Below are positions 2,832-26,180 of a stretch of 26,180 nt of DNA, piece after piece. Numbering within the stretch: position 1 is the first letter of the stretch; each line of letters opens with the position of its first letter. The notes below the pieces were generated by a model, which searched no databases, was not told the DNA's origin, and saw nothing but the letters and a program-made list of their open reading frames with translations. Made by a program: the position numbers and the translations under genes. Source of the DNA: a virus (taxonomy: Duplodnaviria; Heunggongvirae; Uroviricota; Caudoviricetes); IMG/VR virus record IMGVR_UViG_2698536580_000004, positions 1 through 26,180 of that record; one strand, written 5' to 3'.

Positions 2832-5489
2832 ATGAATGCCACAATACAGCAGGACGTTGTGCGCCGGCTCGTTCAGGATTTTGAATTTAAAGAACGGGAT
2901 AAATATTTGCAGCAGGGCGTTTGCCCTAAATGCCATAAACGCGAATTATTCACCAGTATAGAAAAGCCCTGGATACTGAAGTGCGGCCGTGAAAACAACT
3001 GCGGCCATCAGGTCGTTGTCAAAGAGCAGTATCCTGAAATCTTTGAGGACTGGTCTAAGCGGTACCAGGACACCCCTGAAACCCCACATGCCGCTGCTGA
3101 GGCGTACCTGCGTGAGGCGCGGGGGCTGGATACTGAACCGCTAAAAGGTTGCTTTACTCAGGGCGCGTTCGTGAAGGATGGCATGGGGTCGGCAACGGTC
3201 AGATTTTCGCTGTCATGCGGTGCAACATGGGAGCGCATCATTGACCAGCCGCAGCGCTTTGGTAAGCAGAAAGCGAACATCAGAGGCAGCTATGTTGGTC
3301 ACTGGTGGGTTCCGCCTTCTGTGAACCTGCTGGAAGTGGATGAAATCTGGATCACTGAGGGAATCTTCAACGCACTGAGTCTGTGCCAGGCAGGGTTTCC
3401 TGCAGTTGCCACACTGAGCAGTAACAACTATCCGCTGGCCGCACTGGATTCGCTGGCCAAAGAACTGGGTGAAAAACCACGTCCACGTCTTGTATGGGCG
3501 TTTGACGGCGATAAAGCCGGCACAAAGCACACGCTGGCGTTCGCTGCCCGTAGTGATGCTGCAGGATGGAAAACCCGTGCCGCGCAGCCGGTGAAATCAT
3601 CGGCATCGCTGGACTGGAATGACCTGTTGTTACGTAACCGGTTCAGTAAGTCGGACATTAAAAATTATCGCTACTATGGCGATCTCCTTCTGGCAAAAAG
3701 CCCGACTGAGAAAGCCCTTCTTATGCATCAGCACAATGAATGGCACTCGTTTTATTTCGAACATGGTTCCCGCATGTACTGGTTTGAGCTGGATCTGGAC
3801 AGGTACATGCGAGCCTATGAGCGCATCACCAATACCGGTACCGAAGTGGTGATGGAGTGGGAGGCAAAAGAACGGGCGGTTAAAGAGTCAGGCGGTGTGA
3901 CCGAAATTGCCAACTGCTGGCTGACGCCGCTTTATTTCCAGCGGTCTGAACCTACAGACGAGTCCTGGTATTACGTGAAGGTCAGTATGCCGAACCGGCC
4001 AGCCGTGAAAGATACTTTTACGGCTAATCAGCTCACCAGTTCCGCCGAGTTCAAAAAGCGTCTTCTGCATATCGCCAAGGGGGCGGTGTATACCGGCAGT
4101 ACCAAACAGCTGGATAAGTTCATCCAGATGCGCCTCCCTGAAATCAAAGAAGTTAAGACGCAGAATTTCATTGGATACAACAAAGATTATGCCGCCTGGC
4201 TATTTAACCGTGTGGCCGTGTGTGATGGCCGGCTGTATGAGATGAACGACGAGGATTATTTCGAAATCAACAGCGCCAGCGTTAAGAGCCTGAGCCTCAC
4301 GCCGGCGCTGGATCTGAATCCGAAGCTGAACGAATTCACCACGGGCTGGGTTGACGATATCTGGACAGCGTTTGGTGAAAAAGGGTATGTGGCGCTGGCG
4401 TTCTGGCTGGGGTCGCTGTTCGCTGAGCAAATCCGGGAGCGTGACAAGTCATTTCCGTTTCTGGAAATCGTGGGCGAGCCGGGGACAGGTAAATCCACGC
4501 TGATAGAATTTCTCTGGAAGCTCGCCGGCCGTGAGGAATACGAAGGGTTTGATCCTTCTAAATCAACAGCCGCAGCGCGTGGACGCAACTTTGCCCAGGT
4601 TGGCAACCTTCCGGTTGTGCTGATTGAGGGCGACCGCACCACGGATAACGCTAAACAACGCGCTTTTGACTGGGACGAGCTGAAATCACTGTATAACGGT
4701 CGTGCCTCCCGTGCCGTGGGTATCAAATCGAACAATAACGAGACGTATGAGCCGCCATTCAGGGGAAGCATTGTGATAGCGCAAAATGCCGACACAGACG
4801 GCAGCAAGGCCTTTCTGGAGCGTATCATCCACATCTATACCGACAAGCGCGGCCAGTCCATTCAGACCCGCTACGCCGCCGAACGGCTTGAACAGATACC
4901 CGTTAGTCAGGTATCCGGGTTCACACTGCTGGCCACCATGCGTGAAAAAGAAATCATGAAGGTGTTCGGTCAGGGCTACGAACGCGCCCGTAGTGAGCTG
5001 GAGTCCAATACCAGTATTCGCCATATTCGTATCGCCAAAAACCACGCGCAACTGGTTGGTCTGCTGGATGCGCTGGCGTTGGTTGTACCAGTACCGATGG
5101 AACGTATTGAGAAGACCCGCGATGCAATTACCGCGCTGGCCGTGGAACGGTGTCAGGCGCTTAAAAAGGATCACCCTCTGGTGCAGGAATTCTGGGAGCT
5201 GTTTGATTACCTGGATGAACTTGCACCTTATGGCATCAATCATTCATCAGATGAAAATGAAATCGCGGTTAACTTCAATCACATGGAAGAGGTAGCCGCA
5301 GCACACCGGCAGCGTATTCCGTTCACATTAACGGAAATTAAAAAGCTGCTTAAAAACGGTAATGAACGGCGGTTCATCAGACAAAGTACCACGCGCAGCG
5401 CGGTAAGTGAGCGCCATAATCGTGGTAAAGGGGATATGCAACGGATGCCGGAAACATTCCGCTGCTGGATATTTAATAGAGAAAAGTAG
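2832..5489 (+). CDS. replication primase-helicase (zinc ribbon + TOPRIM + P-loop NTPase; P4 alpha-like architecture)
   Basis: 885 aa. N-terminal CPKCHKRE...LKCGRENNCGH zinc ribbon; TOPRIM-like WITEG (Glu) and WAFDGDKAG (DxD); Walker A GEPGTGKST followed by VVLIEGD. Confidence 0.75.
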   Translation: MNATIQQDVVRRLVQDFEFKERDKYLQQGVCPKCHKRELFTSIEKPWILKCGRENNCGHQVVVKEQYPEIFEDWSKRYQDTPETPHAAAEAYLREARGLDTEPLKGCFTQGAFVKDGMGSATVRFSLSCGATWERIIDQPQRFGKQKANIRGSYVGHWWVPPSVNLLEVDEIWITEGIFNALSLCQAGFPAVATLSSNNYPLAALDSLAKELGEKPRPRLVWAFDGDKAGTKHTLAFAARSDAAGWKTRAAQPVKSSASLDWNDLLLRNRFSKSDIKNYRYYGDLLLAKSPTEKALLMHQHNEWHSFYFEHGSRMYWFELDLDRYMRAYERITNTGTEVVMEWEAKERAVKESGGVTEIANCWLTPLYFQRSEPTDESWYYVKVSMPNRPAVKDTFTANQLTSSAEFKKRLLHIAKGAVYTGSTKQLDKFIQMRLPEIKEVKTQNFIGYNKDYAAWLFNRVAVCDGRLYEMNDEDYFEINSASVKSLSLTPALDLNPKLNEFTTGWVDDIWTAFGEKGYVALAFWLGSLFAEQIRERDKSFPFLEIVGEPGTGKSTLIEFLWKLAGREEYEGFDPSKSTAAARGRNFAQVGNLPVVLIEGDRTTDNAKQRAFDWDELKSLYNGRASRAVGIKSNNNETYEPPFRGSIVIAQNADTDGSKAFLERIIHIYTDKRGQSIQTRYAAERLEQIPVSQVSGFTLLATMREKEIMKVFGQGYERARSELESNTSIRHIRIAKNHAQLVGLLDALALVVPVPMERIEKTRDAITALAVERCQALKKDHPLVQEFWELFDYLDELAPYGINHSSDENEIAVNFNHMEEVAAAHRQRIPFTLTEIKKLLKNGNERRFIRQSTTRSAVSERHNRGKGDMQRMPETFRCWIFNREK

Positions 5490-5520
5490 GAGGAAAGTTC
5501 TATGTGTGATTGCTTAAAAC

Positions 5521-5778
5521 ATGTCGGTAATGCAGTTAAAACTCGTCTGCTTGAAAAAAGTACCTGAAGGAGCGGAAGTATTTGAGGGATTCGAGACGGG
5601 GTGGGATAACTCTGTATTTTTTCTTTCTAGTGGTCGTATTCATGTAAATATGCGCTATAAGATGGCATTCAGGGCGAAAAAGAAAAATGGTGACATGGCA
5701 AAGAACCTTACTCATCTGGAGTGCAGTGTTGCGATGGCATATTGCCCGTTTTGTGGTGAAAAAGAGAACGCCTTATGA
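5521..5778 (+). CDS. hypothetical small protein (coding status uncertain)
   Basis: 85-aa ORF in the AT-rich segment after the primase gene; no SD at its ATG; contains a T-rich low-complexity stretch; C-terminal CPFCGE. May instead be non-coding (possible cos region). Confidence 0.3.
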   Translation: MSVMQLKLVCLKKVPEGAEVFEGFETGWDNSVFFLSSGRIHVNMRYKMAFRAKKKNGDMAKNLTHLECSVAMAYCPFCGEKENAL

Positions 5779-6026
5779 AACAGGATTATTATTCGTATGA
5801 GGAATTGCTGATGGGGATGTTTAATATCGGTGATGAACTTTATGAAACGACTGATTTTGATGAACTGACGATGGAACATTTTGAAGTCAGTTTTGAGCAG
5901 TTTGCTAATATTGTCGATGCCTTATTGCCATTTACAGCTTTGGTTTGCTCTCCTTTAAGTGGAAGAAATTATCACGCATTTCTTAAAGATGGCATTGCCT
6001 TTATTAAGACTGAGGCCAGTGTGTAA
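5775..6026 (+). CDS. hypothetical small acidic protein
   Basis: 83-aa ORF, ATG overlaps the stop of the upstream ORF (ATGA); followed immediately by a terminator hairpin. Confidence 0.4.
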   Translation: MKQDYYSYEELLMGMFNIGDELYETTDFDELTMEHFEVSFEQFANIVDALLPFTALVCSPLSGRNYHAFLKDGIAFIKTEASV

Positions 6027-6032
6027 AAAGTA

Positions 6033-6055
6033 AGGCACCAGTTGGTGCCTTTTTC
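6033..6055. terminator. bidirectional rho-independent terminator between convergent genes
   Basis: Hairpin AGGCACC-AGTT-GGTGCCT (6033-6050) followed by TTTTC on the plus strand and preceded by AAAAAG (T-run on the minus strand); sits between the stops of convergent genes. Confidence 0.7.
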
Positions 6056-11952: not shown

Positions 11953-12144
11953 ATGTCGTTTAAGCATGAGTTAGGCCAGGTTGTTGAAGTTTCCATTAGC
12001 GGCGAAGAGGGGCATATCAAAGCCCGTGCGGAGTACACCAACAGCTGCAATCAGTATCTGATCCACTATCAGACTGCTGACGGTCGCGCATCTGATGCGT
12101 GGTTTGAAGAAGGTGAGATTCAGGCCGCAAAACGCGGCGAGTAA
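11953..12144 (+). CDS. hypothetical 63-aa protein
   Basis: Short ORF with a GGGAG SD inserted between the small terminase and head completion genes; no motif recognised. Confidence 0.4.
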   Translation: MSFKHELGQVVEVSISGEEGHIKARAEYTNSCNQYLIHYQTADGRASDAWFEEGEIQAAKRGE

Positions 12145-13870: not shown

Positions 13871-14994
13871 CCTGGCCAATTGTGACCGTAAACCAGGTAA
13901 ATCAGCTGCTGGGTGAAACCACGGAAGTGGAGCGCACGCTGCTGTTTATCGGCACGGGAACCAAAAATGTAGGTAAGACGCTGGCAGTTAACGCACAGAG
14001 TGATTTTGATGCGCTGCTGGGCGAGGGTGACAGCCCGTTAAAAAGTGATGTGCTGGCCGCACTGGCGAACGCCGGCCAGAACTGGTGGGGATTTGTTCAT
14101 GTGCTGGCCGCAGACAGCGAGCCGGGGGCATGGGTGGATGCCGTTAAGGCCGCACAGCTCTCCTGTTCGGTGGAAGGTGTGGTGCTGTCTGATGATGTGG
14201 CCGCGAAAGCGCAGATTAACCAGGCGGCAACGCTGCGATCTGAACTGATTGCTAAATACGGGCGCTGGGTGTGGTTCATTCTGGCGGTTCAGGGGATGCA
14301 GCAGGATGAAGCCCAGGCGGATTATCTGGTGCGTCTGTCCACTCTTCAGGAAGGTATTGCGGAAAAAGCGGTACAGCTGGTACCCCGTCTCTGGGGGAAT
14401 GAACCGGGCGTGCTGGCTGGTCGTCTCTGCAACCGTGCTGTCACCATCGCCGACAGTCCGGCGCGGGTGAAAACAGGCGCGTTGCTGAGCATGGGCAGTG
14501 ATGAACTGCCGAAAGACGGTGCCGGCGAAACGCTGGAACTGGCGACCCTTCAGGCGCTGGAGGCACAGCGCTACAGCGTGCCGATGTGGTATCCGGACTA
14601 TGACGGCTTTTACTGGGCTGACGGGCGCACGCTGGACGTTGAGGGCGGCGATTACCAGTCCATTGAGACGCTGCGTATTGTGGATAAGGCAGCACGCCGC
14701 GTCCGTCTGCTGGCCATCGGTAAGATTGCCGATCGCTCACTTAACAGTACACCGGGCAGTATTGCCGCACACCAGACGCTGTTTGCCCGTCCGCTGCGGG
14801 AAATGTCCACTGCGGCCAGCATTAACGGCGTGTCATTTCCGGGCGAGGTGAAACCTCCACAGGACGGTGACGTGACCATTGTCTGGAAGAACAAAAAGGC
14901 GGTGGATATTTACATTGTGGTGCGTACGTATGAAGTACCGCTGCAGATCACCATCAGTCTGTTACTGGATGCAAGTCTGGAGGCCAGCGCATGA
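13867..14994 (+). CDS. putative contractile tail sheath protein
   Basis: 375 aa, largest structural ORF directly upstream of a ~150-aa tube-sized gene in a tail with baseplate J-like and fibre genes; positional inference. Confidence 0.45.
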   Translation: MTWPIVTVNQVNQLLGETTEVERTLLFIGTGTKNVGKTLAVNAQSDFDALLGEGDSPLKSDVLAALANAGQNWWGFVHVLAADSEPGAWVDAVKAAQLSCSVEGVVLSDDVAAKAQINQAATLRSELIAKYGRWVWFILAVQGMQQDEAQADYLVRLSTLQEGIAEKAVQLVPRLWGNEPGVLAGRLCNRAVTIADSPARVKTGALLSMGSDELPKDGAGETLELATLQALEAQRYSVPMWYPDYDGFYWADGRTLDVEGGDYQSIETLRIVDKAARRVRLLAIGKIADRSLNSTPGSIAAHQTLFARPLREMSTAASINGVSFPGEVKPPQDGDVTIVWKNKKAVDIYIVVRTYEVPLQITISLLLDASLEASA

Positions 14995-15446
14995 CCAAAC
15001 GTATTTCAGGGATGTCCTTTGATATCTATCTGGACGGTGACCTGATCCACATTGAAAAAATTTCGCTGGATATTACCGATAACAGCGCCGCCGCACAGAC
15101 GCGCGGTGTTCCTGACGGGTATGTGGACGGTGACGTTGCCGCCGAGGGTGAAATTGAAGTCAGCTCCAAAGTGCTGCAGGTTCTGACAGCCAAAGCCCGT
15201 TCAGCGGGGTCATGGCGTGGCATTCCTCCGGTTGACTTCCTTTTTTACGCCAAAGCCGGCAGCGAAGAAATGAAAGTGGAAACCTTTGGTAACAAGCTGC
15301 AGCTCAACAGCGTTCTGGATGGTGATCCGAAGGGTGGCAGTGTGTCCACGCATAAAATCAAATACTTCGTGACAAGTCCGAAGTTCGTCAACATCAACGG
15401 TGTGCCGTATCTGGAAGCGGAAGCCACGGAAAACCTGATTGGATAA
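14991..15446 (+). CDS. putative tail tube protein
   Basis: 151 aa, ATGA-coupled to the putative sheath gene; positional inference. Confidence 0.45.
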   Translation: MTKRISGMSFDIYLDGDLIHIEKISLDITDNSAAAQTRGVPDGYVDGDVAAEGEIEVSSKVLQVLTAKARSAGSWRGIPPVDFLFYAKAGSEEMKVETFGNKLQLNSVLDGDPKGGSVSTHKIKYFVTSPKFVNINGVPYLEAEATENLIG

Positions 15447-17020: not shown

Positions 17021-18984
17021 AACAGTTAGATTTTACATTAAGCCTGATTGATAAGCTGACGCGCCCGTTAAAACAGGCGCAGGGCAGCGTCACCGGCTTT
17101 GCGGAAAAATCAAAAGCGGCCTTTTCGCAGATTGGCGGCGGCGTGCTGGGGCTGGCCGGTACGGGGATGGCCATAAAAGGCGCGTTATCGCCGGCTATCG
17201 AAATGTACGACGCGCTGAATGATGCCGCCGCAAAAGGGATTGATAATCAGGCATTAAAGACCGTACAGCGTGACGCGCTCCGGTTCAGCATGACCTACGG
17301 TGCCAGCGCGGTGGAGTTCGTCAAATCCACAGAGAACATTAACGCTTCCATTGCCGGCCTTACCGCCAGCGAGCTGCCGAAAGTGACGAAGGTCGCTAAT
17401 ACGCTGGCGTTTGCCCTGAAATCCACATCCGCCGACACGGCGGAGTTCATGGGGCAGATGTACGGTAACTTTTCCGCCGATGCGGCGCGGCTGGGTAAAG
17501 TCCAGTTCGCCGAGCAACTGGCGGGAAAAATGGTGTATATGCGCAAGGTCTTCGGTACCGAAATGGGTACCATCAAAGACCTGATGGAAGGGGCGCGGGG
17601 TGTCGGGACTAACTACGGCGTCGGGCTGGATGAACAGCTGGCGGTGCTGGGACAGCTAAATCGTACGCTGGGGACAGAAGCCAGCAGCGCTTATGAAGGT
17701 TTCATGACCGGCGCGATGGAGGGAGCTAAAAAGCTGGGGCTGTCCTTCACGGACTCCACCGGCAAAATGCTGTCCATGCCTGAAATGCTGATCAAGCTGC
17801 AGGGCAAATACGGCAAAAGCCTGGAAGGGAACCTGAAAGCCCAGGCGGAGCTGGATGCGGCATTTGGTGACAGTTCAGCGGTGATAAAACACCTGTACGG
17901 CAATGTGGCGTTACTGCAGCGTAATATCACCGAACTGGGCGGCTCTGACGGGCTGAAGCGTACACAGGAGATGGCCGGGAAGCTGGTCAAGCCGTGGGAT
18001 CGCTTTGTACAAATCCTTAAAGCCATTCAGACGGTGATCGGACTGACGTTGATCCCGGTTCTGTACCCGGTACTGAACCGCCTGGCCGATATGGGGCAGA
18101 CGTTCGGCCGCTGGATGCAGATGTTTCCCAACATTGCGCGGGTGATTGGTTACGTGCAGCTTGCGCTGTTTGGCGTGGCGGCAGCGGGCGCGATGACAAA
18201 TATTGTCATGGGTGTCTCAAAATTTATCCTGGTGGGACTGAAGGGACTCTGGAGCGCCCTGACGCTGGTCACGAAGATTTACACGGCCACGGTCTGGGTT
18301 GCCTCAAAAGCTGTTGTGGCGTGGAACCTGACGCTGAAATTCCTGCGGGGTACGCTGCTGGCCGTGCGCATGGCGGCGATTATGGCCGGTATTGGCATCA
18401 ACCTGATGAGCTGGCCGGTTCTGCTGGTTATCGGGGCGATTGCTCTGCTGGCAGCCGGGTGTTATCTGCTGATTAAACACTGGGATGATGTGAAAGCGGC
18501 GGTGATGAATACGGCAGCGTTTACCGCCGTGGCTGGTGTGGTGGAATGGCTTGCCGGCCTGTTTTCCGCTGCGTGGCAATGGATCACGGACGGCTGGAAC
18601 AGCTTTATTGCGCTGCTGACCGGGTTTTCACCGTCACAGGCGCTAAGCGGCATGGCCAGCGGGATTGTCTCCCTGTTTGATAACGTCTGGCAGACCATCA
18701 AAGGCGGGTTCCTGAAATCGTGGAACTGGATTGTCGGAAAGCTCAATAAAATTCCGGGCGTCGATATTTCACTGGCGAACGAATCTCAACCGGCACTGAC
18801 AACGAATACCCTTTCTACTGGCGGTGAATTAAAAGGCGTTGATAAAGGCGGTATCAGTAAAACAATTAGCAGTAATTCTAAATCAGTAACGGATAACAGC
18901 CGTAAAATTGGTGAAGTGCATTTTCATACTAAAGAAGCGCTTTCACCCTCCCAGCTAATGGAATGGCAGGAGCTTAATGCGTGA
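17017..18984 (+). CDS. tail tape measure protein
   Basis: 655 aa, Ala/Gly-rich helical N-terminal part, several hydrophobic segments in the C-terminal half; directly downstream of the chaperone pair. Confidence 0.75.
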   Translation: MKQLDFTLSLIDKLTRPLKQAQGSVTGFAEKSKAAFSQIGGGVLGLAGTGMAIKGALSPAIEMYDALNDAAAKGIDNQALKTVQRDALRFSMTYGASAVEFVKSTENINASIAGLTASELPKVTKVANTLAFALKSTSADTAEFMGQMYGNFSADAARLGKVQFAEQLAGKMVYMRKVFGTEMGTIKDLMEGARGVGTNYGVGLDEQLAVLGQLNRTLGTEASSAYEGFMTGAMEGAKKLGLSFTDSTGKMLSMPEMLIKLQGKYGKSLEGNLKAQAELDAAFGDSSAVIKHLYGNVALLQRNITELGGSDGLKRTQEMAGKLVKPWDRFVQILKAIQTVIGLTLIPVLYPVLNRLADMGQTFGRWMQMFPNIARVIGYVQLALFGVAAAGAMTNIVMGVSKFILVGLKGLWSALTLVTKIYTATVWVASKAVVAWNLTLKFLRGTLLAVRMAAIMAGIGINLMSWPVLLVIGAIALLAAGCYLLIKHWDDVKAAVMNTAAFTAVAGVVEWLAGLFSAAWQWITDGWNSFIALLTGFSPSQALSGMASGIVSLFDNVWQTIKGGFLKSWNWIVGKLNKIPGVDISLANESQPALTTNTLSTGGELKGVDKGGISKTISSNSKSVTDNSRKIGEVHFHTKEALSPSQLMEWQELNA

Positions 18985-19310
18985 GTGGGATTCTCTATAT
19001 TGACCTGCTTATTGAGCATGGTGACTTCTCATTAAATGCCGGTAATGAGCCTGAATTATGCAATAACCGAAAAAGTATCGGGCAGGACATTATTCACGCC
19101 ATTATTGAGAGCGGATTAGCCACGCAATTAATTGCGGAACGCAGTCCGACACTGAGGGCAGATATTTTTACACAACTGGAATTACTGGTTGAAAACGATG
19201 AGCGCATTGTGCCGGGAACGGTGGAAATCAGTGAAGAAAGCCAGAAACGGCTGTGGGTGACCGCGAGCACATACGATTTTGGCACGCTTTCATATCAGGT
19301 GGACTTATGA
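18981..19310 (+). CDS. putative baseplate/tail protein (small)
   Basis: 109 aa; GTG start overlapping the tape measure stop (GTGA); AT-rich; no motif recognised. Confidence 0.4.
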   Translation: MSGILYIDLLIEHGDFSLNAGNEPELCNNRKSIGQDIIHAIIESGLATQLIAERSPTLRADIFTQLELLVENDERIVPGTVEISEESQKRLWVTASTYDFGTLSYQVDL

Positions 19311-20491
19311 CGGAAAAGCCCCAGGTTGATTTTGAAGAAGTGGTGAAAGCCGGCGGGATGCCGGTGACGGAATCTGAGGTTCGCGATCGCTTCAATGCGA
19401 TTGCAGCTGACGAGGGGATTATCACCAATACGTCCCGCATGTCACCGTTCTGGCGGTTAATCACCGCCATTGTGACCGCGCCAGTGATGTGGCTGAAAGA
19501 CGTTCTGGTGTTCACCGTGCTGGCCAATATGTTTGTGGCCACAGCCAGCGGGAGCATGTTGCGTCTGCTGGCGTGGGCGGTGAACGTCACGGCAAAACCG
19601 GCGAGCGCTGCACAGGGTGTGATCCGCTTCTTCAAAGAAGATGCAAAAGCTGTGGTGACGGTGAAAGCCGGGACGATTATCCAGACAGAGCGCATTAACG
19701 GCCGCGTGTATGAGCTGGCCACCAGTGAGGATGTGGTGATCGCTTCCGGTACGGCCAGCGCATTACTGCCGGTGAAAGCCACCGGCACCGGGGGCGCATA
19801 TAACCTTGCGCCGGGATATTACCGCATTCTGCCGGTTGCCGTTGACGGTATCAGCTACGTGACCAGCGAAGAAAACTGGCTGACCGTACCGGGCGCGGAT
19901 GAAGAAAGTGATGACGAGCTGCGCGAACGCTGCCGCAATCAGTTCAATCTGGTGGGGAATTACCACACTGACGCCGTTTACCGGTCGATGATTGCCGGCG
20001 TTGCAGGGCTGAGTATTGACCGGATTTTCTTTGAACATGAAGCGCCGAGGGGACCCGGTACCGCCAACGCGTATCTGTTGCTGGACAGCGGGGTGGCCTC
20101 TGCGCCTTTCGTGGATGCGGTGAATGACTATATCAACACGCAGGGACACCACGGGCATGGTGATGATATGCAGTGCTATTCCATGCCGGAAACGCTTCAC
20201 GATCTGGTCGTCACGGTTTATGTCAAAAATCTGAACAACTTCAGTGACGAAGAAGTGAAAACGCTGAAGGGCGGCATTGAAAACATGATCCGCTGTGCCT
20301 TTCGTGAGAATGCTGATTATGACGTCAGAAAGACGTGGCCATATTCACGGTTTTCCTTTTCTCAGCTGGGGCGGGAGATCCACAGGACATTTACTCAGAC
20401 GGAATCACTGTCTTTTTCGCTGGGTGATATCACCAGCGAACTGAGTGTGCCACGCCTGAAATCGTTAACGGTGGGTATTGAAAATGAGTGA
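19307..20491 (+). CDS. putative baseplate wedge protein (baseplate J-like)
   Basis: Track frame starts at 19253 but the ATG at 19307 (MTEKPQ) overlaps the upstream stop (ATGA); ~394 aa; precedes small tail protein, fibre and Tfa, the order seen in P2 J-I-H-G and e14-type modules. Confidence 0.45.
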   Translation: MTEKPQVDFEEVVKAGGMPVTESEVRDRFNAIAADEGIITNTSRMSPFWRLITAIVTAPVMWLKDVLVFTVLANMFVATASGSMLRLLAWAVNVTAKPASAAQGVIRFFKEDAKAVVTVKAGTIIQTERINGRVYELATSEDVVIASGTASALLPVKATGTGGAYNLAPGYYRILPVAVDGISYVTSEENWLTVPGADEESDDELRERCRNQFNLVGNYHTDAVYRSMIAGVAGLSIDRIFFEHEAPRGPGTANAYLLLDSGVASAPFVDAVNDYINTQGHHGHGDDMQCYSMPETLHDLVVTVYVKNLNNFSDEEVKTLKGGIENMIRCAFRENADYDVRKTWPYSRFSFSQLGREIHRTFTQTESLSFSLGDITSELSVPRLKSLTVGIENE

Positions 20492-21071
20492 GTTCCTGAA
20501 AAAGCTGGCCGGGATGGTGCTTCCTTCCTGGATGAACAAAGGGGAGCCGGCCAAGTTGCTGAAAACGGCGCGGCGGTTCTGGGCTGAGGTTTACGGCTGG
20601 GTAACGTGGCCAGTGAATCAGTTCGATCCGCTGACGTGTACGCCGGTATTACTGAACCTGCTGGCGTACGACCGCGACATTACCCGCTTTGACGGTGAAC
20701 CGCTGGCATTGTTCCGTAAGCGCGTGGCATATGCCTTTGTCAATGCGCGGGATGCCGGTTCCGTTGAGGGGTTTATCAACATCTTTGAACGGCTGGGAAT
20801 TGGGTACGTTGAGCTGCAGGAACGCCAGCCGGGGATTGACTGGGATGTGATTCTGGTTCGCGTGACAGACAGCCAGATTGCGGACAACACGCAGTTGCTG
20901 ATCCAGATAATTCGCCAGTACGGGCGAACATGTCGCCGTTATCAGTTTGAGGTGATCACGTCTGAAAGCCTGGCCATCCGGGCGGGATGGGATCAGGGAG
21001 AATATGTGGCGTATCCGGCAGCGTTAAACAGTACGGTAACAGACAGCGCGACGTTCAGCGCGGGTTTATAG
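20484..21071 (+). CDS. putative baseplate/tail protein (P2 gpI-like position)
   Basis: Track start 20478 is TTG; ATG at 20484 (MSEFLKK); ~195 aa; between the J-like gene and the tail fibre. Confidence 0.45.
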   Translation: MSEFLKKLAGMVLPSWMNKGEPAKLLKTARRFWAEVYGWVTWPVNQFDPLTCTPVLLNLLAYDRDITRFDGEPLALFRKRVAYAFVNARDAGSVEGFINIFERLGIGYVELQERQPGIDWDVILVRVTDSQIADNTQLLIQIIRQYGRTCRRYQFEVITSESLAIRAGWDQGEYVAYPAALNSTVTDSATFSAGL

Positions 21072-21080
21072 GGAGATTTT

Positions 21081-22658
21081 ATGTCACAGACAGCTATCAC
21101 ACTGGCATTTGAACAGTGGAAGGCGCTGCAGGGTGCCACTGGCGAGCCTGTCCTGCTGGACGAATTTGTTTTTGCGAACGTGCCGGGACTGAATCCAGAA
21201 CAACCCGTTGATCGCAGCGAGACACTGCCACCGGCCGCGCAGATTGTTCACCGGCAGGCAGTCAGCCGTAAAGGTGTGGTGAATGAAAATGCCGTGGTGC
21301 ACTCCGTTGTACTGGGTGCGGATGTGGGCGATTTTTCGTTTAACTGGATCGGCCTGATTAACAAGGCCAGCGGCACGCTGGCGATGATTGTTCATGCGCC
21401 TGTCCAGCAAAAGCTGAAAACTGCAGAAGGGCAGCAGGGGAATGTCCTGACCCGCTCTTTCCTGATGGAATACAACGGCGCACAGACAGAAACCGGCATC
21501 AATACGCCCGCTGAAACCTGGCAGATTGATTTTACTGCGCGTATGGCCGGAATGGATGAGCGCCAGCGCCTGGAAAATATGGATATCTATGGTGCGGCGG
21601 CGTTTTTTGGTAACGGGTATCTGGTAGCCAAAACCGGCAATCAGTTTTTTGTCACGAAAGGCACAGGTTATGTGGCTGGACTTCGTGCGTCACTGGCTGC
21701 GAACCAGAATATTACGGTGACGACAAAGCCGGTAAAAGTCTGGCTGGATGTGTGCTGGACGGGAACGCTGACCAGTGTCTGGAATGTGCAGAGCAAAATC
21801 ACGGTGGCTGCAAATCTTGCTGATTACGTTCAGAACGGGGTTCAGCATTATGTGTTTGCGGTGGCCAGCATTGATGCGGATGGCAACATCACGGATTTAC
21901 GGCCAAAAGGTAGCCTGGGAGAACAGCAGGCCAGCAGCGATTTTTTGCGTAAGGATGCAAACCTTGCTGATGTTAACGACAAAGCGAAAGCCAGAAAAAA
22001 TCTTGAACTGGGTGAACTGGCTGTTTTAAGCATTAGTGATGTTGTACCTGTTGGGGTGCCACTTCCCTGGCCGACAGATATCCCACCGGCGCGTCACGCA
22101 ATCATGCAGGGACAGGCATTTGATACAGTGGCTTGCCCGCAATTGGCTATTGCATACCCATCGGGTGTTCTTCCTGATATGCGCCGCCAGACAATCAAAG
22201 GGAAACCAGATGGCCGCGCAGTATTGTCCTGTGAAGATGATGGCAATAAATCCCATGCTCACACTGCCAGTGCATCCAGTACCGATCTGGGGACGAAATC
22301 GACATCCTCATTCGATTACGGTACCAAAACAGCCAGCACTTTTGATTATGGGACTAAAACGACGAATACAACGGGGGCACACGTACATTCTAGGAATTAT
22401 GGGGGAACTTACGTTGATTCAGGTAATAACACACAAAATCAGGTGCCACGTTGGGGATCTGCGTCTAACTCATCATCAGCCGGAAACCACGCTCACACAG
22501 TAGGAATTGGCGCGCACAATCACACCGTAGGTATCGGCGCTCATGCTCACACTGTAGCAATAGGCGCACACAGTCACACCATTACCGTCGCCGCGTCGGG
22601 TAACGCAGAAACGACCGTTAAGAATATTGCATTTAACTACATAGTGAGACTCGCATAA
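21081..22658 (+). CDS. tail fibre protein with C-terminal His-rich repeat tip
   Basis: 525 aa; GGGAG SD; Gly/Thr/Ser-rich shaft; repeats (S/T)xxFDYGTKT and four tandem 9-aa HxHT(V/I)xIGA repeats near the C-terminus; followed by a Tfa gene. Confidence 0.75.
22488..22595 (+). repeat. four tandem 27-nt repeats encoding HxHT(V/I)xIGA in the tail fibre gene
   Basis: cacgctcacacagtaggaattggcgcg / cacaatcacaccgtaggtatcggcgct / catgctcacactgtagcaataggcgca / cacagtcacaccattaccgtcgccgcg, in frame with the fibre ORF. Confidence 0.8.
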
Positions 22659-23245
22659 TGACTTTTAAAATGAGTGAAACCGATCAAACAGTTACTGTTT
22701 ATAACCTGCGTTCCGATACGAATGAATTTATTGGTGCGGGTGACGCTTTTATTCCTGCACATACCGGACTGCCAGCTAACTGCACCACGATAAAGCCACC
22801 GGCAATCAAAGCGGGATTTGTGGCGATTTTTGATTCAGAGAAGCAAAGATGGATTTCCCGTGAGGATCATCGTGGTGAGGTGGTGTTTTATACGGAAAAC
22901 GGTAATGAGCTGGAGATAACCGAGCCAGGCGCTTACCCGGAAGGGACTACCACGTCAGCACCGGCTAATGCCTGGCAAAAATGGAATGGTAAGGCGTGGG
23001 TGGATGATGCGGAGGCCATGCGAATTGCATTAGTCAGCGAGGCAGACGCCGAAAAGAAAAGACTGCTTAAACAGGCCAATGATGCCATTACCACATTGCA
23101 GGATGCCGTTGATTTAGACATGGCGACCGAAGAAGAAGCACTGCTGCTTACCGCATGGAAAAAATACCGCGTTTTACTGAATCGTATTCAACCGGAAGAT
23201 GCGCCGGAAATTGTGTGGCCGGAGGTGCCTGGAAATGTGGCGTGA
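22658..23245 (+). CDS. tail fibre assembly protein (Tfa)
   Basis: 195 aa; C-terminal LQDAVDLDMATEEEALLLTAWKKYRVLLNRIQPEDAPEIVWPEVP is a typical Tfa C-terminus; start overlaps the fibre stop (TAATG). Confidence 0.8.
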   Translation: MTFKMSETDQTVTVYNLRSDTNEFIGAGDAFIPAHTGLPANCTTIKPPAIKAGFVAIFDSEKQRWISREDHRGEVVFYTENGNELEITEPGAYPEGTTTSAPANAWQKWNGKAWVDDAEAMRIALVSEADAEKKRLLKQANDAITTLQDAVDLDMATEEEALLLTAWKKYRVLLNRIQPEDAPEIVWPEVPGNVA

Positions 23246-23960
23246 AGCACGTCTGGCCTTCACGGATTCTGTTGCTGCGCTGAACTGTTCTATCGTCCCT
23301 GCGCATCCGTGGATTTATGGGCTGGGACAGCAGACAGCGAACGGGGCATATCTCAGCCCGGTTAATGCTGTTCGCTATCTTGCTGAACGCCTGGCCGGAA
23401 CAGGGGGGAATGCGGACATGGTGATTATGATGGTCACCGGACAGACACAGGATAACTTCATGGCAAGCCTGAATAACCTGGTCGGGATTTTCCCCGCCCC
23501 GGCATTCACGCAGGTCAAACGGCTTGCGCAATCCGCCGCAGCGCTGGCTATTGAAAAGATGCAGATCCCTGCGAAAACCGCCGCTGCGTTACCTGCGCCC
23601 ATTCCGTTGTCTGTACCAACCAGCAGGGCAGCTTTATCTGCTGCGGCAATCAGCCAGGCACAAAAGGCGGCGGGTGCCGGGTTTGATATCGAAGGGCTGA
23701 AAAAACAGCTGGGCGAGTTCACGCAGCTGCGTGACCAGCTTATCAGTGATGTGGCCAGCGGACTGAATGATTTACAGGGGAAAAGTGCCAGAGCGTGGGT
23801 TTTTACTGCCAGCGGAGACACCGGCACCACGTTACTGGAACTGATGAAGGACATTCCGCAGCAGTCTGCCGTTTACACCGCTGCCATGATGCTGGTTGGC
23901 GATAATCTTGATGGAATAAAGGGAATGATTCATGACTGCGATCCCGACATTGGCGCTTAA
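23235..23960 (+). CDS. hypothetical Ala-rich protein of unknown function
   Basis: Track frame starts at 23199; ATG at 23235 (MWREARL) has GGAGG 9 nt upstream and overlaps the Tfa 3' end; ~241 aa; no motif recognised. Confidence 0.45.
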   Translation: MWREARLAFTDSVAALNCSIVPAHPWIYGLGQQTANGAYLSPVNAVRYLAERLAGTGGNADMVIMMVTGQTQDNFMASLNNLVGIFPAPAFTQVKRLAQSAAALAIEKMQIPAKTAAALPAPIPLSVPTSRAALSAAAISQAQKAAGAGFDIEGLKKQLGEFTQLRDQLISDVASGLNDLQGKSARAWVFTASGDTGTTLLELMKDIPQQSAVYTAAMMLVGDNLDGIKGMIHDCDPDIGA

Positions 23961-24477
23961 TGGCGAGGCCATCCAGCTGAAAAACATGCGGGTGACTGTT
24001 TCACAGCAGTTTCAGGATAAAGATCAGTCCGGCCAGACCAGCGCCACAACAAAATCAGAGCAGGGAGCAAAGGGAAAGGAACTGCGGATCAGCGGTGAAA
24101 TACCTTTTAAACAGTCTGAAATACTGAAGCGTATTTTTGAGCTGGCCAGTGCTACCGATGCCAGTGGTAATCGTCAGAAGTACCGCGTGGCGCATGAAGT
24201 TGCCCGTGCTGTTAATTTTCGTGAAGCAACGTTCAGCGGGATGCTGGATGCACCCCAGCAGGACGGGAAAATGTCCTGGCTGGTGACATTCACACTGGCG
24301 GAACATATCAGCGTGCAGGAAAAGCGAGAAGCCAGGGCAACAGGTAAGACGACCGCAAAAAAACAGACTGCCGGTAGTGCGGGACAGTCCGGTGGCCAGT
24401 CTGCCGGAGAGGATGAAGAAAAACTGACGTGGTTTGAACGCAAGGTGCTGAAGCCCGTCAATGATGCTTTGGGTTAA
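23932..24477 (+). CDS. hypothetical protein of unknown function (Lys-rich centre, Gly/Ser/Gln-rich C-terminal stretch)
   Basis: 181-aa ORF overlapping the upstream ORF by 29 nt; its stop overlaps the ATG of the hub/spike gene; no motif recognised. Confidence 0.45.
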   Translation: MTAIPTLALNGEAIQLKNMRVTVSQQFQDKDQSGQTSATTKSEQGAKGKELRISGEIPFKQSEILKRIFELASATDASGNRQKYRVAHEVARAVNFREATFSGMLDAPQQDGKMSWLVTFTLAEHISVQEKREARATGKTTAKKQTAGSAGQSGGQSAGEDEEKLTWFERKVLKPVNDALG

Positions 24478-26180
24478 TGATGAAACCAGTAAAACGCCTT
24501 TACCTTTCAACGGATGAAGTTCACCTGGTGGATGCCAGCCTGGTACTGGAGCTGAACAGCTGTGGCCGGGGCTTCATCACCGCAGAGACAACAACCGATT
24601 ACACCGGAAAACTGGTGCGGCTGGATGTGGGGTATACCGATCTGCTTTTGCGGTGGTTTACGGGGTATGTGGAGCGATCGCAGCCCGCTGAAAACGGTTT
24701 TCAGCGTCTGTTCATTCGTGAGCTGGTAGGTGTGTTTGAAAGGATGTGGCCATGTTCGTTTCAACACCCGACTTTGCGTGAAATTGCGGGCTGGCTGGAA
24801 GAAAACAGCGGGATCACGGTCAGTGTGCCTGATGCACAGTACAGCGATACCCCCATCCCACATTTTACCCATAACGGTACTGGTTATCAGTTGCTGAACA
24901 ATCTGGGCAGGGCGTTCAGTATCCTGGATTACATTTGGTACCAGTTGCCTGATGGTTCGCTTTACGTCGGCGGCGCAGAAAAGTCATTGTTTGCCGGTCG
25001 TTCCGTAGAAATCCCGTCAGAGTTCAGCCAGGGGGCTGCTGGCGGTAACTCTGTGACATTACCAGTGATCCAGACTATGCGGCCAGGGGTGGAGATGAAC
25101 GGTGAACGCGTGACTAAAGTTCACCTGACGAATGATACGATGGCGATCACATGGACGCCGAGAAACCGCGCAACGGGTAAACCTTTGCAGAAAACACCGG
25201 CGCAACGGCAGATTGAAAGCCATTACCCGGAACTGGCATCCGGGCTTCATTTGCCAAAGATGGCCAGAGTCGTGGCGCATTCAGAGCCGGTAAAAAGCGG
25301 TAACTTTGCCGATCCCTTCCGGCCACGTTACGCCGTGGACGTGCAGCTGCTTGACGCAGACGGAAATCCGGACAATCAGACGCCTGTTTATTCAGCGGTG
25401 CCGCTGCCGGTACCAATGGCCGGGTATGATTCAGGTATGTTTCAGTTTCCGCCAGAAGGGACGCTGGTTGAGGTTGCATTCACGGGAGGCAGACCGGATA
25501 AACCCTTTATCAGGCAGACGCTGCCGGATGGTACCAGCCTGCCGGACGTTAAACCCGGTGAGCAATTGCAGCAGCAGCGGGAAGAAGTATCCCTGAGGGT
25601 GACTCAGGCGGGTGACTGGGTAAGGCAGACCGATCAGACCATCAGCGAAACATCAATGGTGCGAACCGTGAAAGCCGATACAGAACAGCGCGAACTGGTC
25701 AGCCGTGAAACCACAGTGAAAGCCACGGATAAAACCACGGTACTGGGAACCGCCACACTGCTGGCCGGAGCCATCCAGCAGGTAAGCGCCGGTGATTATA
25801 GCCAGGCGGTGAAAGGTAACAGGCTGGCCAGTATTGAAGGAAACGAAGAAACGGACATAGCAGGACAGCAGTCCACTAAAGTGGGCGGAGCTGTAGCCGT
25901 GGAGGTTGGCGAAAGCCTGACAGAGAAGATTGCCGCACTGCGTAAATCAGTGGCCGCTGGCGGTCAGCAGGTCATGGGGACAACTGTCCATATTGGCAGT
26001 GAGAGTATCAATGCCCTGACCATGATGCTGGACACCATTGATTTGCTGGCAGAACTGGCAAGGCAGTGCGCCAGTCACTCACACCCCAGCGTTGGCACAC
26101 CGACCAATGCGTCATCATTTACTCAGACTGCTACGAAAGCCGGAGAAACCCGGAGCAAGTACCAGAATATTATCGCCTGA
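24477..26180 (+). CDS. baseplate central hub/spike protein (gpV/VgrG-like OB-fold and apex)
   Basis: 567 aa; GMFQFPPEGTLVEVAFTGGRPDKPFI matches the spike OB-fold signature (G..F.P..G.EV.V.F..GD...P.I); C-terminal CASHSHPSVGTPT resembles the HxH..G.T apex motif of gpV-type spikes. Confidence 0.55.
   Translation: MMKPVKRLYLSTDEVHLVDASLVLELNSCGRGFITAETTTDYTGKLVRLDVGYTDLLLRWFTGYVERSQPAENGFQRLFIRELVGVFERMWPCSFQHPTLREIAGWLEENSGITVSVPDAQYSDTPIPHFTHNGTGYQLLNNLGRAFSILDYIWYQLPDGSLYVGGAEKSLFAGRSVEIPSEFSQGAAGGNSVTLPVIQTMRPGVEMNGERVTKVHLTNDTMAITWTPRNRATGKPLQKTPAQRQIESHYPELASGLHLPKMARVVAHSEPVKSGNFADPFRPRYAVDVQLLDADGNPDNQTPVYSAVPLPVPMAGYDSGMFQFPPEGTLVEVAFTGGRPDKPFIRQTLPDGTSLPDVKPGEQLQQQREEVSLRVTQAGDWVRQTDQTISETSMVRTVKADTEQRELVSRETTVKATDKTTVLGTATLLAGAIQQVSAGDYSQAVKGNRLASIEGNEETDIAGQQSTKVGGAVAVEVGESLTEKIAALRKSVAAGGQQVMGTTVHIGSESINALTMMLDTIDLLAELARQCASHSHPSVGTPTNASSFTQTATKAGETRSKYQNIIA

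Follow-up and report, generated by a model that had tools for sequence, protein, structure and literature searches.

In HP1 and its relatives, three late genes follow the tail-fibre and fibre-assembly genes and close the late operon. Phages HP1 (orf33-35), HP2, K139 (orf37-39, with a terminator downstream of orf39) and F108 (Orf42-44) all carry full-length homologues of the genes described below, with order, strand and coupling unchanged. To our knowledge, no protein of this block has been experimentally characterised in HP1, HP2, K139 or F108, and we know of no solved tail structure for an HP1-type member of the Peduoviridae. P2 has a different arrangement: its U-D gene pair stands after the tape-measure gene and V is separate, whereas in the DNA studied here the fibre-assembly gene precedes the pair and a single gene encodes both hub and spike. 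A counterpart of orf33 is missing from P2; our phage, for its part, lacks gpX, the LysM glue protein of P2. The P2 accessory gene fun(Z) is read from the opposite strand, with the V operon terminator on one side of it and the F promoter on the other; it is non-essential and variable among P2-like phages. Centerpiece or ripcord proteins of other contractile systems (pyocin R2 PA0626, Milano gp25, Pa193 gp38/gp39 and Mu gp43) are 170-446 aa long, and in the long ones the Tube domain is followed by a helical wedge-joining domain, sometimes with LysM. As far as we know, every solved contractile system joins its wedges by a LysM BW4 protein, by the helical domain of a centerpiece or by both.

The window, i.e. 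the whole 26,180-nt stretch of viral DNA that was analysed, is an HP1-type Peduoviridae prophage. Its DNA is 97% identical to that of Escherichia phage ESSI2_ev129 (Peduoviridae, Quadragintavirus), in whose RefSeq entry the three reading frames of interest are annotated as in the window. A sequence-only reading of the window had singled out two overlapping same-strand genes, encoding 241 and 181 aa, downstream of the fibre-assembly gene, the second of them overlapping the ATG of the hub/spike gene. These coordinates proved exact, the last overlap being 1 nt. Below, the two are called genes A and B, and the protein families of the three genes ORF33, ORF34 and ORF35 after their HP1 homologues. 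The tail genes that enter the argument are the following.

14991-15446: major tube protein gene (Phage_HP1_Orf24), separate from gene B
18981-19310, plus strand: DUF2590 gene (Pfam DUF2590), sheath initiator, gpW-like; ESSI2_ev129 RefSeq coordinates
19307-20491, plus strand: gpJ-like gene (Pfam Baseplate_J); ESSI2_ev129 RefSeq coordinates
about 20478-21071, plus strand: gpI-like gene (Pfam Tail_P2_I); ESSI2_ev129 RefSeq coordinates
22658..23245, plus strand: tail-fibre-assembly gene (Pfam Caudo_TAP, E 1.3e-35), directly 5' of gene A
23235..23960, plus strand: gene A, 241 aa, homologue of HP1 orf33 and K139 orf37
23932..24477, plus strand: gene B, 181 aa, homologue of HP1 orf34, predicted tube initiator (Tube domain of a baseplate centerpiece)
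24477..26180, plus strand: hub/spike partner gene, 567 aa, homologue of HP1 orf35 (phrog_2258 'baseplate protein', E 4.5e-274)

The DUF2590, gpJ-like and gpI-like genes make up the rest of the baseplate wedge set (18981..21071, plus strand); their equivalence to gpW, gpJ and gpI comes from HHpred (PMC10612066, Table S1).

The ATG of gene A lies 9 nt downstream of a GGAGG (23221-23225), and an AAGGGA precedes the ATG of gene B. The fibre-assembly gene overlaps gene A by 11 nt, gene A overlaps gene B by 29 nt, and gene B meets the hub/spike gene in a TAATG. Among related loci the same lengths recur in 68 of 71, 79 of 79 and 41 of 42 cases, respectively. In comparisons with 73-78 related viral contigs, genes A and B have dN/dS ratios of 0.10 and 0.07, respectively; both genes are under purifying selection, and the low ratios together with the conserved overlaps show that they are real genes rather than chance ORFs. 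A programmed frameshift across the 29-nt overlap was considered and rejected: in other genera the overlap falls to just 4-14 nt, and it is therefore plain translational coupling.

Both proteins belong to families that are already known (HP1 orf33 and orf34). Gene A matches phrog_1677 (HP1 orf33-like, function unknown; E 8.4e-76), and tblastn with its product reaches HP1 orf33 (E 6e-13) and K139 orf37 (E 1e-6) as well as HP2 and F108; an ORF33 HMM adds matches in phiO18P, phi3 and ACA1. The homology is full-length from E. coli to Haemophilus and Vibrio, with an additional N-terminal insertion of about 55 aa in the K139-type proteins. The family comprises 317 sequence clusters and is a compact orphan specific to HP1-type tails. 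Gene B matches the Pfam family PF25759 HP1_ORF34 (baseplate complex protein) with E 8.6e-54 and 182.3 bits, the cutoff being 27; the match covers residues 6-181 and profile positions 2-176 of 180, and all 120 listed homologues of gene B carry it. The earlier remark that neither protein has a recognisable motif thus stands for gene A, which has no Pfam or NCBIfam match, and fails for gene B. Identity to the HP1 proteins is 28% for ORF33, 40% for ORF34 and 41% for ORF35; with the J and I proteins included, the neighbours of gene A range over 40-54%. ORF33 evolves faster than the genes around it.

The order fibre-[chaperone]-orf33-orf34-orf35 is found in HP1, F108, K139, ValB1MD-2, SI7, ESSI-2, vB_YenM_324 (a search for a publication on this phage found none), phiO18P, phi3 and ACA1. 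Genes A and B hold the same position in at least 10 genera of the Peduoviridae, and the ORF33 HMM puts the family directly upstream of orf34 in 10. Among close relatives, the pair is present and collinear in 78 of 80; in 44 E. coli genomes it occurs in single copy, always with the prophage present. A locus search with the ORF34 alignment returned close relatives throughout (78-99% identity). What does change from phage to phage lies upstream. The fibre tip and chaperone have been replaced in 60 of 75 relatives, with A and B staying collinear with the hub gene. The exchanged segment consists of the C-terminal half of the fibre gene and most of the chaperone gene and ends before gene A; in 55 related loci, only the C-terminal third of the fibre-assembly gene (aa ∼125-195) is kept, the rest being exchanged with the fibre tip.

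These observations bear on the proposal, made in the sequence-only reading, that the two genes occupy an accessory hotspot like that of P2 Z/fun, which would make them non-essential genes of lysogenic conversion or exclusion lying 3' of the fibre-assembly gene. The slot does resemble that of P2 fun(Z), and gene A has no recognisable domain; the likeness to fun(Z) is, however, a superficial one of position only. The two genes lie on the same strand as their neighbours, overlap them on both sides with no intergenic space, and have a GC content (0.51-0.58) that matches the adjacent tail genes; no promoter or terminator was found between the genes. In none of this do they resemble P2-type hotspot cargo (Z/fun, tin, old), which has its own promoter and terminator or the opposite strand, atypical composition and variable presence. 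Their conservation in place and low dN/dS, the stop of the exchanged segment short of gene A and the baseplate family and predicted tube fold of gene B all speak against accessory cargo, and PADLOC-DB HMMs of known anti-phage defence families match neither protein. We regard the hotspot proposal as close to refuted. The locus is ordinary tail machinery, namely the conserved orf33 and orf34 of HP1-type P2-like phages, and in this the earlier argument that the overlaps favour structural or assembly roles over independent cargo is borne out.

In the AlphaFold model of gene B, the core reaches pLDDT 88-92 and is assigned to the tail-tube fold, a class marked by a beta-sandwich, a flanking helix and a long hairpin; a Foldseek comparison with viral models again pointed to the tail-tube fold class. 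Single-sequence and profile searches of the PDB with gene B gave no match. Gene B is distinct from the major tube protein gene and adjoins the hub gene; the ORF34 profile scored the phage's own tube protein at a probability of at most 1%. No other candidate for a tube initiator or hub was seen in the window. The P2 tube initiator gpU shares the predicted tube fold, is also encoded directly upstream of the hub gene and is of similar size (159 aa versus 181 aa). Sequence similarity to gpU was not detectable: gene B gave no Pfam match to PF06995 Phage_P2_GpU at E≤0.1, and hhalign of ORF34 alignments against P2 gpU remained below 1%. An HHpred analysis of ACA1 had tentatively equated HP1 orf34 with P2 gpU, marking the assignment as uncertain, and orf35 with gpD plus gpV (PMC10612066, Table S1). 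Mass spectrometry of ACA1 virions did not pick up gp47, the homologue of ORF34 in that phage (PMC10612066). Going by the modelled fold, gene B is most likely the tube initiator, in the class of T4 gp48/gp54, P2 gpU and PA0626, and would start the tail tube on the baseplate hub.

Three segments of gene B stand out.

24010..24081, plus strand: aa 27-50, the 'Lys-rich centre', rich in K/Q/S/T/G, between strands E17-25 and E49-58
24337..24420, plus strand: aa 136-163, the Gly/Ser/Gln/Ala-rich tail, rich in G/A/T/K/Q/S, pLDDT 38-51, read as a flexible linker
24421..24474, plus strand: aa 164-181, C-terminal amphipathic helix EEKLTWFERKVLKPVNDALG, helix H167-180 in the model, candidate wedge contact

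The compositional features noted earlier are confirmed for the first two segments, as is the Ala-rich character of protein A (17% Ala overall). The central segment is disordered in the monomer model, yet it is the best-conserved part of the protein across eight genera (majority fraction 0.72), with D31, S33, G34, S37, T39, G45 and K47 invariant. Judged by the fold class, this segment probably forms the long beta-hairpin typical of tube folds and would line the lumen of the assembled ring. The linker is the least conserved segment (majority fraction 0.39). In the C-terminal helix (hydrophobic moment 0.50), W167, F168, E169, K174 and N177 do not vary among 89 enterobacterial homologues; the helix differs in HP1 and F108 and is missing from ORF34 of K139, ValB1MD-2, C5a, yong1 and ACA1. 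P2 gpU likewise has a C-terminal helix after its tube domain, and that helix contacts the wedge triplex. By analogy with it (bioRxiv 10.64898/2026.09.14.750843), the helix of gene B may dock on the wedge. The long centerpieces have a whole helical domain after the Tube domain, whereas ORF34 has a linker and one helix only. The idea that this helix compensates for the length of ORF33 was rejected, phiO18P having both a long ORF33 and the helix.

The partner gene, ORF35, gives weak Pfam matches to Gp5_C and Phage_base_V and, in the PDB, matches the beta-helix of T4 gp5 (E 5e-7) and, weakly, VgrG. Hub (P2 gpD-like) and central spike (P2 gpV/T4 gp5-like) are fused in it, as PMC10612066 (Table S1, note d) also states. 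BW4, the LysM protein of the wedge, has been called universally conserved (PMC10811340). No LysM or Phage_tail_X domain was detected in any ORF of the window, the small ORFs, the N-terminus of J and the ends of ORF33 having been checked. Gene A did not group with the LysM glue/BW4 proteins (P2 gpX, T4 gp53, PA0627), its hhalign probability against gpX being below 1%. A local likeness of 10 residues (LVGDNLDGIK against LQGDTLDAIC) was set aside; it lies too close to the C-terminus for a LysM domain. Gene A is thereby excluded from the LysM family, but it may still have a function like that of the LysM glue.

Protein A itself has two notable regions.

23286..23408, plus strand: aa 18-58, the best-conserved segment, with invariant or nearly invariant columns across alignments A1, A3, A4 and A7
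23517..23684, plus strand: aa 95-150, Ala/Pro-rich middle (34% Ala), predicted helical or disordered

The conserved segment has the motif P-H-P-W..G.G....G-Y-L-S-P-x-N-A...L-A-x-K-L, of which P25, L40 and A45 persist in 90% or more of a set of 122 sequences with 15-80% identity to the window protein. In the AlphaFold model, pLDDT is below 50 across residues 87-150. Neither single-sequence nor profile searches of the PDB (with the 122-sequence profile included) gave a match, and there was no fold match. Against ORF34, P2 gpX, gpU and gpD, 13 further P2 structural proteins and the phage's own tail proteins, the ORF33 profile scored a probability of at most 1% throughout. A Pfam scan of 122 diverse relatives gave just scattered chance matches to coiled-coil families. 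Four longer database proteins, inspected as possible Rosetta-stone fusions, turned out to be chimeras created by deletions in prophages that have decayed or been rearranged; none is a natural domain fusion. Two isolated phages with complete genomes, C5a and vB_ValM-yong1, have no ORF33, and in both of them orf34 adjoins the 3' end of the fibre gene; ORF33 therefore cannot be indispensable to every HP1-type baseplate.

The virion evidence for the ORF33 family consists of two spectra from one distant relative: ACA1 gp46, the homologue of gene A, was detected in purified virions (PMC10612066, Table S2). Its abundance index, 0.09, may be compared with 0.08 for gpW, 0.05 for gpJ and 0.06 for gpV (PMC10612066). 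Gene A is probably a low-copy baseplate protein, i.e. a minor virion protein. Baseplate homology and virion detection had been named beforehand as what would tell against an unexplained pair; gene B has essentially come to that point through its Pfam family and predicted tube fold, gene A weakly through the ACA1 virions.

Two other roles for gene A deserve weighing. Gene A could be an assembly factor that stays out of the virion, for example a chaperone or scaffold for the hub or baseplate, with gene B still the tube initiator. Its faster evolution, its long Ala-rich middle of low model confidence, its dispensability in C5a and yong1 and the mere two spectra for the ACA1 homologue would all suit such a role, and the assembly genes of the tail cluster (for the tail assembly chaperone and the fibre-assembly protein) are also small and coupled. 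The ACA1 peptides nevertheless came from CsCl-type virion preparations, with an abundance index in the range of other baseplate proteins of low copy number (PMC10612066), and gene A is conserved over its full length, both terminal regions included; we consider a non-virion role unlikely, at about one chance in several. Less probable still is that gene A functionally belongs to the tail fibre rather than the hub, either as an adaptor through which the conserved N-terminus of the fibre is held on the baseplate or as a second factor for fibre assembly. Gene A does lie directly 3' of the fibre-assembly gene and overlaps it, and the phages without ORF33, C5a and yong1, also have no separate fibre-assembly gene and a differently organised fibre gene. 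Its identity across the 73-78 related contigs follows that of the fibre N-terminal domain (rho 0.81), but it follows ORF34 (rho 0.93) and ORF35 (rho 0.91-0.94) more strongly; these correlations are largely shared descent and do not show contact. Gene A is unchanged through the swaps of fibre tip and chaperone, so that it does not partner the variable part of the fibre, and ACA1 retains ORF33 despite having a split fibre and no chaperone gene.

We return to the hub, and judge it quite probable that A, B and ORF35 together make up the central hub block in a contractile tail of HP1 type, with B as tube initiator and A as a low-copy linker between hub and wedges. In this reading, A and B are transcribed together with the genes for fibre and hub and are coupled to them in translation. 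The three products would assemble with six copies of ORF34 on a trimeric ORF35 hub-spike, templating the first ring of the tail tube, and residues 27-50 of ORF34 would become ordered only within that ring as its lumen-lining beta-hairpin. In the enterobacterial lineage, the flexible Gly/Ser/Gln linker would tether the amphipathic C-terminal helix of ORF34, and the helix would probably reach the wedge in the manner of the P2 gpU helix and of the helical domain of the pyocin and Milano centerpieces. ORF33, faster-evolving, specific to the HP1 lineage and inherited with the hub block, we infer to be a low-copy baseplate component that connects the wedges with the hub and its tube initiator. In place of the missing LysM protein, it could take on a 'glue' role that elsewhere falls to a LysM protein (P2 gpX, T4 gp53) and the centerpiece helical domain, neither of which is seen in this genome. 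If ORF33 supplies the wedge-joining function of a centerpiece, that function comes from a separate upstream gene, whose product has no detectable similarity.

That ORF33 is a new, non-LysM fold that has taken over wedge joining in HP1-type tails is a doubtful proposition, one we would not bet on. If it were true, HP1-type phages would build a working contractile baseplate without a supposedly universal LysM component, and the genera of C5a and yong1 would manage without that component and even without ORF33. The interest that remains in the locus is this conserved orphan, with its 317 clusters, no Pfam family and no structural relative, inside the hub block of phages that have no detectable LysM glue; it bears on whether the parts list of a 'minimal baseplate' is truly universal.

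For annotation, the false hotspot flag can be removed and genes that RefSeq calls 'hypothetical protein' can be given better names. In some phage records, members of the ORF34 family are labelled 'DNA-binding protein' or 'adenine glycosylase', names that look wrong in the light of the predicted tube fold.

Genes A and B, homologues of HP1 orf33 and orf34, lie between the tail-fibre-assembly gene and the hub/spike gene, ORF35:

23235-23960, + strand: gene A (ORF33), 241 aa; ATG preceded by GGAGG at 23221-23225
23932-24477, + strand: gene B (ORF34), 181 aa; ATG preceded by AAGGGA
24477 (start): ORF35, the gene downstream of B

These are exactly the coordinates of the sequence-only reading, whose description of an Ala-rich protein A and of a protein B with a Lys-rich centre and a Gly/Ser/Gln-rich tail is borne out by residue composition. 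Ala makes up 17% of protein A (34% in residues 95-150), and protein B is rich in K/Q/S/T/G at residues 27-50 and in Gly/Ala/Ser/Gln at residues 136-163. As described, the genes share one strand, A and B overlap (by 29 nt, kept in 79 of 79 related loci) and B overlaps the hub/spike ATG (by the one base of TAATG, 41 of 42); A also overlaps the fibre-assembly gene, by 11 nt (68 of 71). These conserved overlaps, together with the dN/dS values obtained from 73-78 related viral contigs (0.10 for A, 0.07 for B, 0.08 for the downstream gene), show that A and B are genuine genes. Escherichia phage ESSI2_ev129 (Peduoviridae, genus Quadragintavirus), 97% identical to the window, is annotated with both reading frames identically.

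By its Pfam domains the window is a complete HP1-type P2-like prophage, with the gene order:

Early genes: integrase, repressor, Cox, primase-like replication protein, Ogr
Head genes: P2-type portal, terminase, scaffold, capsid, gpL, gpR, gpS
Tail shaft and lysis: HP1-type sheath (DUF2586), tube (Phage_HP1_Orf24), then holin, endolysin, spanins
Then: tail assembly chaperone, tape measure
Then: DUF2590, Baseplate_J, Tail_P2_I, fibre, fibre-assembly protein
Last: gene A, gene B, 567-aa hub/spike protein at the window end

The early region also holds a gene for an Rv2179c-like 3'-5' exoribonuclease (2003-2572; Pfam E 2.3e-68), with a weak match to the PADLOC DEDDh model associated with CRISPR-Cas systems (E 3e-5). 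The segment with A and B occurs in 44 of 5426 complete E. coli genomes, once per genome and on the chromosome.

The order matches that of Haemophilus phage HP1: orf27 (tape measure), orf28 (DUF2590), orf29 (J), orf30 (I), orf31 (fibre), orf32 (fibre assembly), then orf33, orf34 and orf35. It differs from that of P2, where the tube initiator U and the hub D come after the tape measure, not after fibre assembly. A and B belong to two known families, those of HP1 orf33 and orf34, and occupy the usual position of these. Their proposed placement at a Z/fun-like accessory hotspot fails on every feature defining such loci. In P2, fun(Z) occupies a slot after gene G on the opposite strand, with the V-operon terminator on one side and the F-operon promoter on the other; A and B carry neither promoter nor terminator of their own and run on the strand of their neighbours. 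Their GC content (0.51-0.58) is like that of the neighbouring tail genes, both are retained in collinear order from genus to genus under purifying selection, and PADLOC gave no match to a known defence family for either. The argument for structural or assembly roles is supported. The observation is confirmed and its interpretation partly supported. A more plausible accessory slot is the 565-nt stretch at 5490-6054, flanked by the primase-like replication gene and ogr, with two small ORFs whose only matches are PHROGs of unknown function:

5521-5778, + strand: small ORF
5775-6026, + strand: small ORF

Genuine mosaicism in this part of the window is seen at 21980-23030, a segment made up of the C-terminal half of the fibre and the fibre-assembly gene up to two thirds of its length. 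Of 80 related viral contigs, 75 extend over the fibre C-terminal half, and 60 of these have it replaced; the fibre-assembly protein is recognisable in related IMG/VR contigs only over its last third (residues ~125-195, about 46% identity), while the flanking genes are collinear. ORF33 is full-length throughout, and its identity tracks that of ORF34 (Spearman 0.93) and ORF35 (0.91-0.94). Therefore the mosaic boundary is located upstream of both genes, and gene A has been passed on together with the hub block.

The sequence-only reading had found no recognisable motif in either protein, and it had proposed HMM and structure-based searches. For gene B these give a full-length match to Pfam PF25759, 'Bacteriophage HP1 ORF34 baseplate complex protein' (E 8.6e-54), and a tube fold; for gene A, which has no Pfam, NCBIfam or PADLOC match, they lead to PHROG phrog_1677, function unknown (E 8.4e-76). 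PF25759 is present in all 120 listed homologues of B, several of which bear the NCBI or UniRef name 'baseplate complex protein'. A PDB sequence search with gene B returned no relative. Its AlphaFold model (89 homologues) is confident in the core (residues 50-125, pLDDT 88-92) and of low confidence at residues 27-46, residues 138-161 and both ends. The closest structural likenesses of gene B are:

Milano baseplate centerpiece gp25: 9.5
pyocin R2 ripcord PA0626: 9.3
Pa193 ripcord-2 and monocin protein FtbK: 9.2
Pam3 tube initiator gp17: 9.0
Lower on the list: tail-tube proteins, Hcp, Dit, Mu gp43

Foldseek against predicted viral structures points to the same fold class, with the N-terminal domains of contractile-injection-system tube, Dit-like and DNA-circulation proteins. 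The major tube protein has its own gene in the window, nothing else there is a candidate for the place between hub and tube, and B abuts the hub gene; we therefore read B with good confidence as the tube initiator, i.e. the Tube domain of the 'baseplate centerpiece' (nomenclature of PMC10811340). Previous HHpred work on ACA1, a phage of the HP1 subgroup, tentatively arrived at the same equivalence, relating HP1 orf34 to P2 gpU with a mark of uncertainty, along with orf35 as fused gpD and gpV homologues and orf28 as a gpW-like sheath initiator (PMC10612066, Table S1). The gpU link was not reproducible at the sequence level by Pfam or profile comparison, and B is therefore filed in PF25759 and the tube-initiator fold class rather than in the gpU family. 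Public records name some ORF34 homologues 'adenine glycosylase', 'nucleoid DNA-binding protein' or 'DNA-binding protein' [L002 6698-7243 (vB_YenM_324 gp34), Salinivibrio SMHB1, vB_Psp_PY3, L091 2989-3528 (phi3 gp33) and L009 4163-4636 (ValB1MD-2 gp03)]; in view of PF25759 and the tube fold, these names are probably wrong.

Residues 27-50 of B, disordered in the monomer model between two long strands, are its best-conserved part across eight genera (majority fraction 0.72; D31, S33, G34, S37, T39, G45 and K47 invariant) and are probably the long hairpin of the tube fold, which would be expected to behave in this way and to order only within the ring. The least conserved part, residues 136-163 (0.39), leads into an amphipathic helix in which W167, F168, E169, K174 and N177 are invariant among enterobacterial homologues. 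The C-terminal helix of P2 gpU touches the wedge triplex (bioRxiv 10.64898/2026.09.14.750843), and in pyocin and Milano neighbouring wedges are joined by a helical domain following the Tube domain (PMC10811340); by analogy, the tail of B would be a tether with a docking helix. This helix is absent from the K139, ValB1MD-2, C5a, yong1 and ACA1 homologues and is specific to some lineages.

Gene A is a compact orphan family limited to HP1-type tails. A profile search run exhaustively over 1.84 billion representative proteins yielded only 317 clusters (nearly all 230-310 aa, none multidomain among the top 150). An alignment of 122 sequences (15-80% identity) contained no member with a Pfam family or a PDB relative, and its profile had no similarity to P2 structural proteins, ORF34 or this phage's own tail proteins. 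Tblastn found 37 phage records, including HP1 and HP2 orf33 (E 6e-13), F108 Orf42 and K139 orf37. Homology extends along the full length in the eight-genus alignment, with the conserved N-terminal motif ..HPW..G.G....GYLSP.NA...LA.KL. The family HMM adds Aeromonas phiO18P (E 5e-51), Pseudomonas phi3 (E 8e-20) and ACA1 gp46 (E 1e-9), always directly upstream of the orf34 homologue; the phi3 frame (L091, about 2225-2989) has no RefSeq annotation. Gene A diverges faster than its neighbours, with 28% identity to HP1 versus 40% for ORF34, 41% for ORF35, 51% for J and 54% for I. No ORF33 homologue was detected in the whole genomes of C5a (L095) and vB_ValM-yong1 (L096), two HP1-subgroup genera in which orf34 directly follows the fibre gene, no separate fibre-assembly gene is present, and hub and spike are encoded separately. 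The gpD-like hub gene of C5a (L092, about 3492-4184) lacks RefSeq annotation, as previously pointed out (PMC10612066).

Three database chimeras have a common breakpoint in ORF33 at gene A residue N36 (window ~23340, ..|NGAYLSPVNA..; loci L097 8001-8993 and L099 8001-9227). ORF33 is joined to a gpJ N-terminus in a decayed Citrobacter freundii prophage, to a fibre N-terminus in an otherwise complete prophage, and to an unrelated N-terminus. By eye, no common DNA sequence was seen within 45 nt on each side of the three junction sites in the window.

The sole experimental datum found for the orf33 family is the ACA1 virion proteome, in which gp46 was detected (2 spectra, 6% coverage) with an abundance index resembling gpW, gpJ and gpV, and the orf34 homologue was not (PMC10612066, Table S2). 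Gene A remains a conserved virion-associated orphan. The minimal contractile baseplate consists of centerpiece, hub, spike, BW1 (gp25/gpW), BW2 (gp6/gpJ), BW3 (gp7/gpI) and BW4, a small 'glue' protein with a LysM domain, whose conservation is described as universal (PMC10811340). In P2 the BW4 position is filled by gpX. Every part except BW4 is assignable in the window, which has no LysM or Phage_tail_X signal anywhere. Long centerpiece proteins carry a helical wedge-joining domain that ORF34 lacks, and ORF33 is the only conserved protein of the module left without assignment. The most economical guess from these three points is that ORF33 would be a low-copy connector, gluing the hub or tube initiator to the wedges. 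We put it forward tentatively, as somewhat doubtful: no fold match speaks for it, the gene lies upstream rather than downstream of the Tube-domain gene, and two isolated phages with complete genomes, C5a and vB_ValM-yong1, have no member of the family. Set beside the gp46 spectra, an assembly factor left out of the virion is an unlikely role for gene A; a part in anchoring the fibre, whose assembly gene A overlaps and whose tip is exchanged independently of it, is quite improbable.

Of residual interest are the apparent absence from this lineage of a LysM glue protein considered universal and the lack of any solved structure for an HP1-type baseplate. Between the small terminase gene and gpL there is a conserved 63-aa ORF (11953-12144; phrog_8618, function unknown) with no LysM signal. 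It resembles P2 gpX in size and in adjoining gene L, but is located upstream of L, whereas X follows L in P2.
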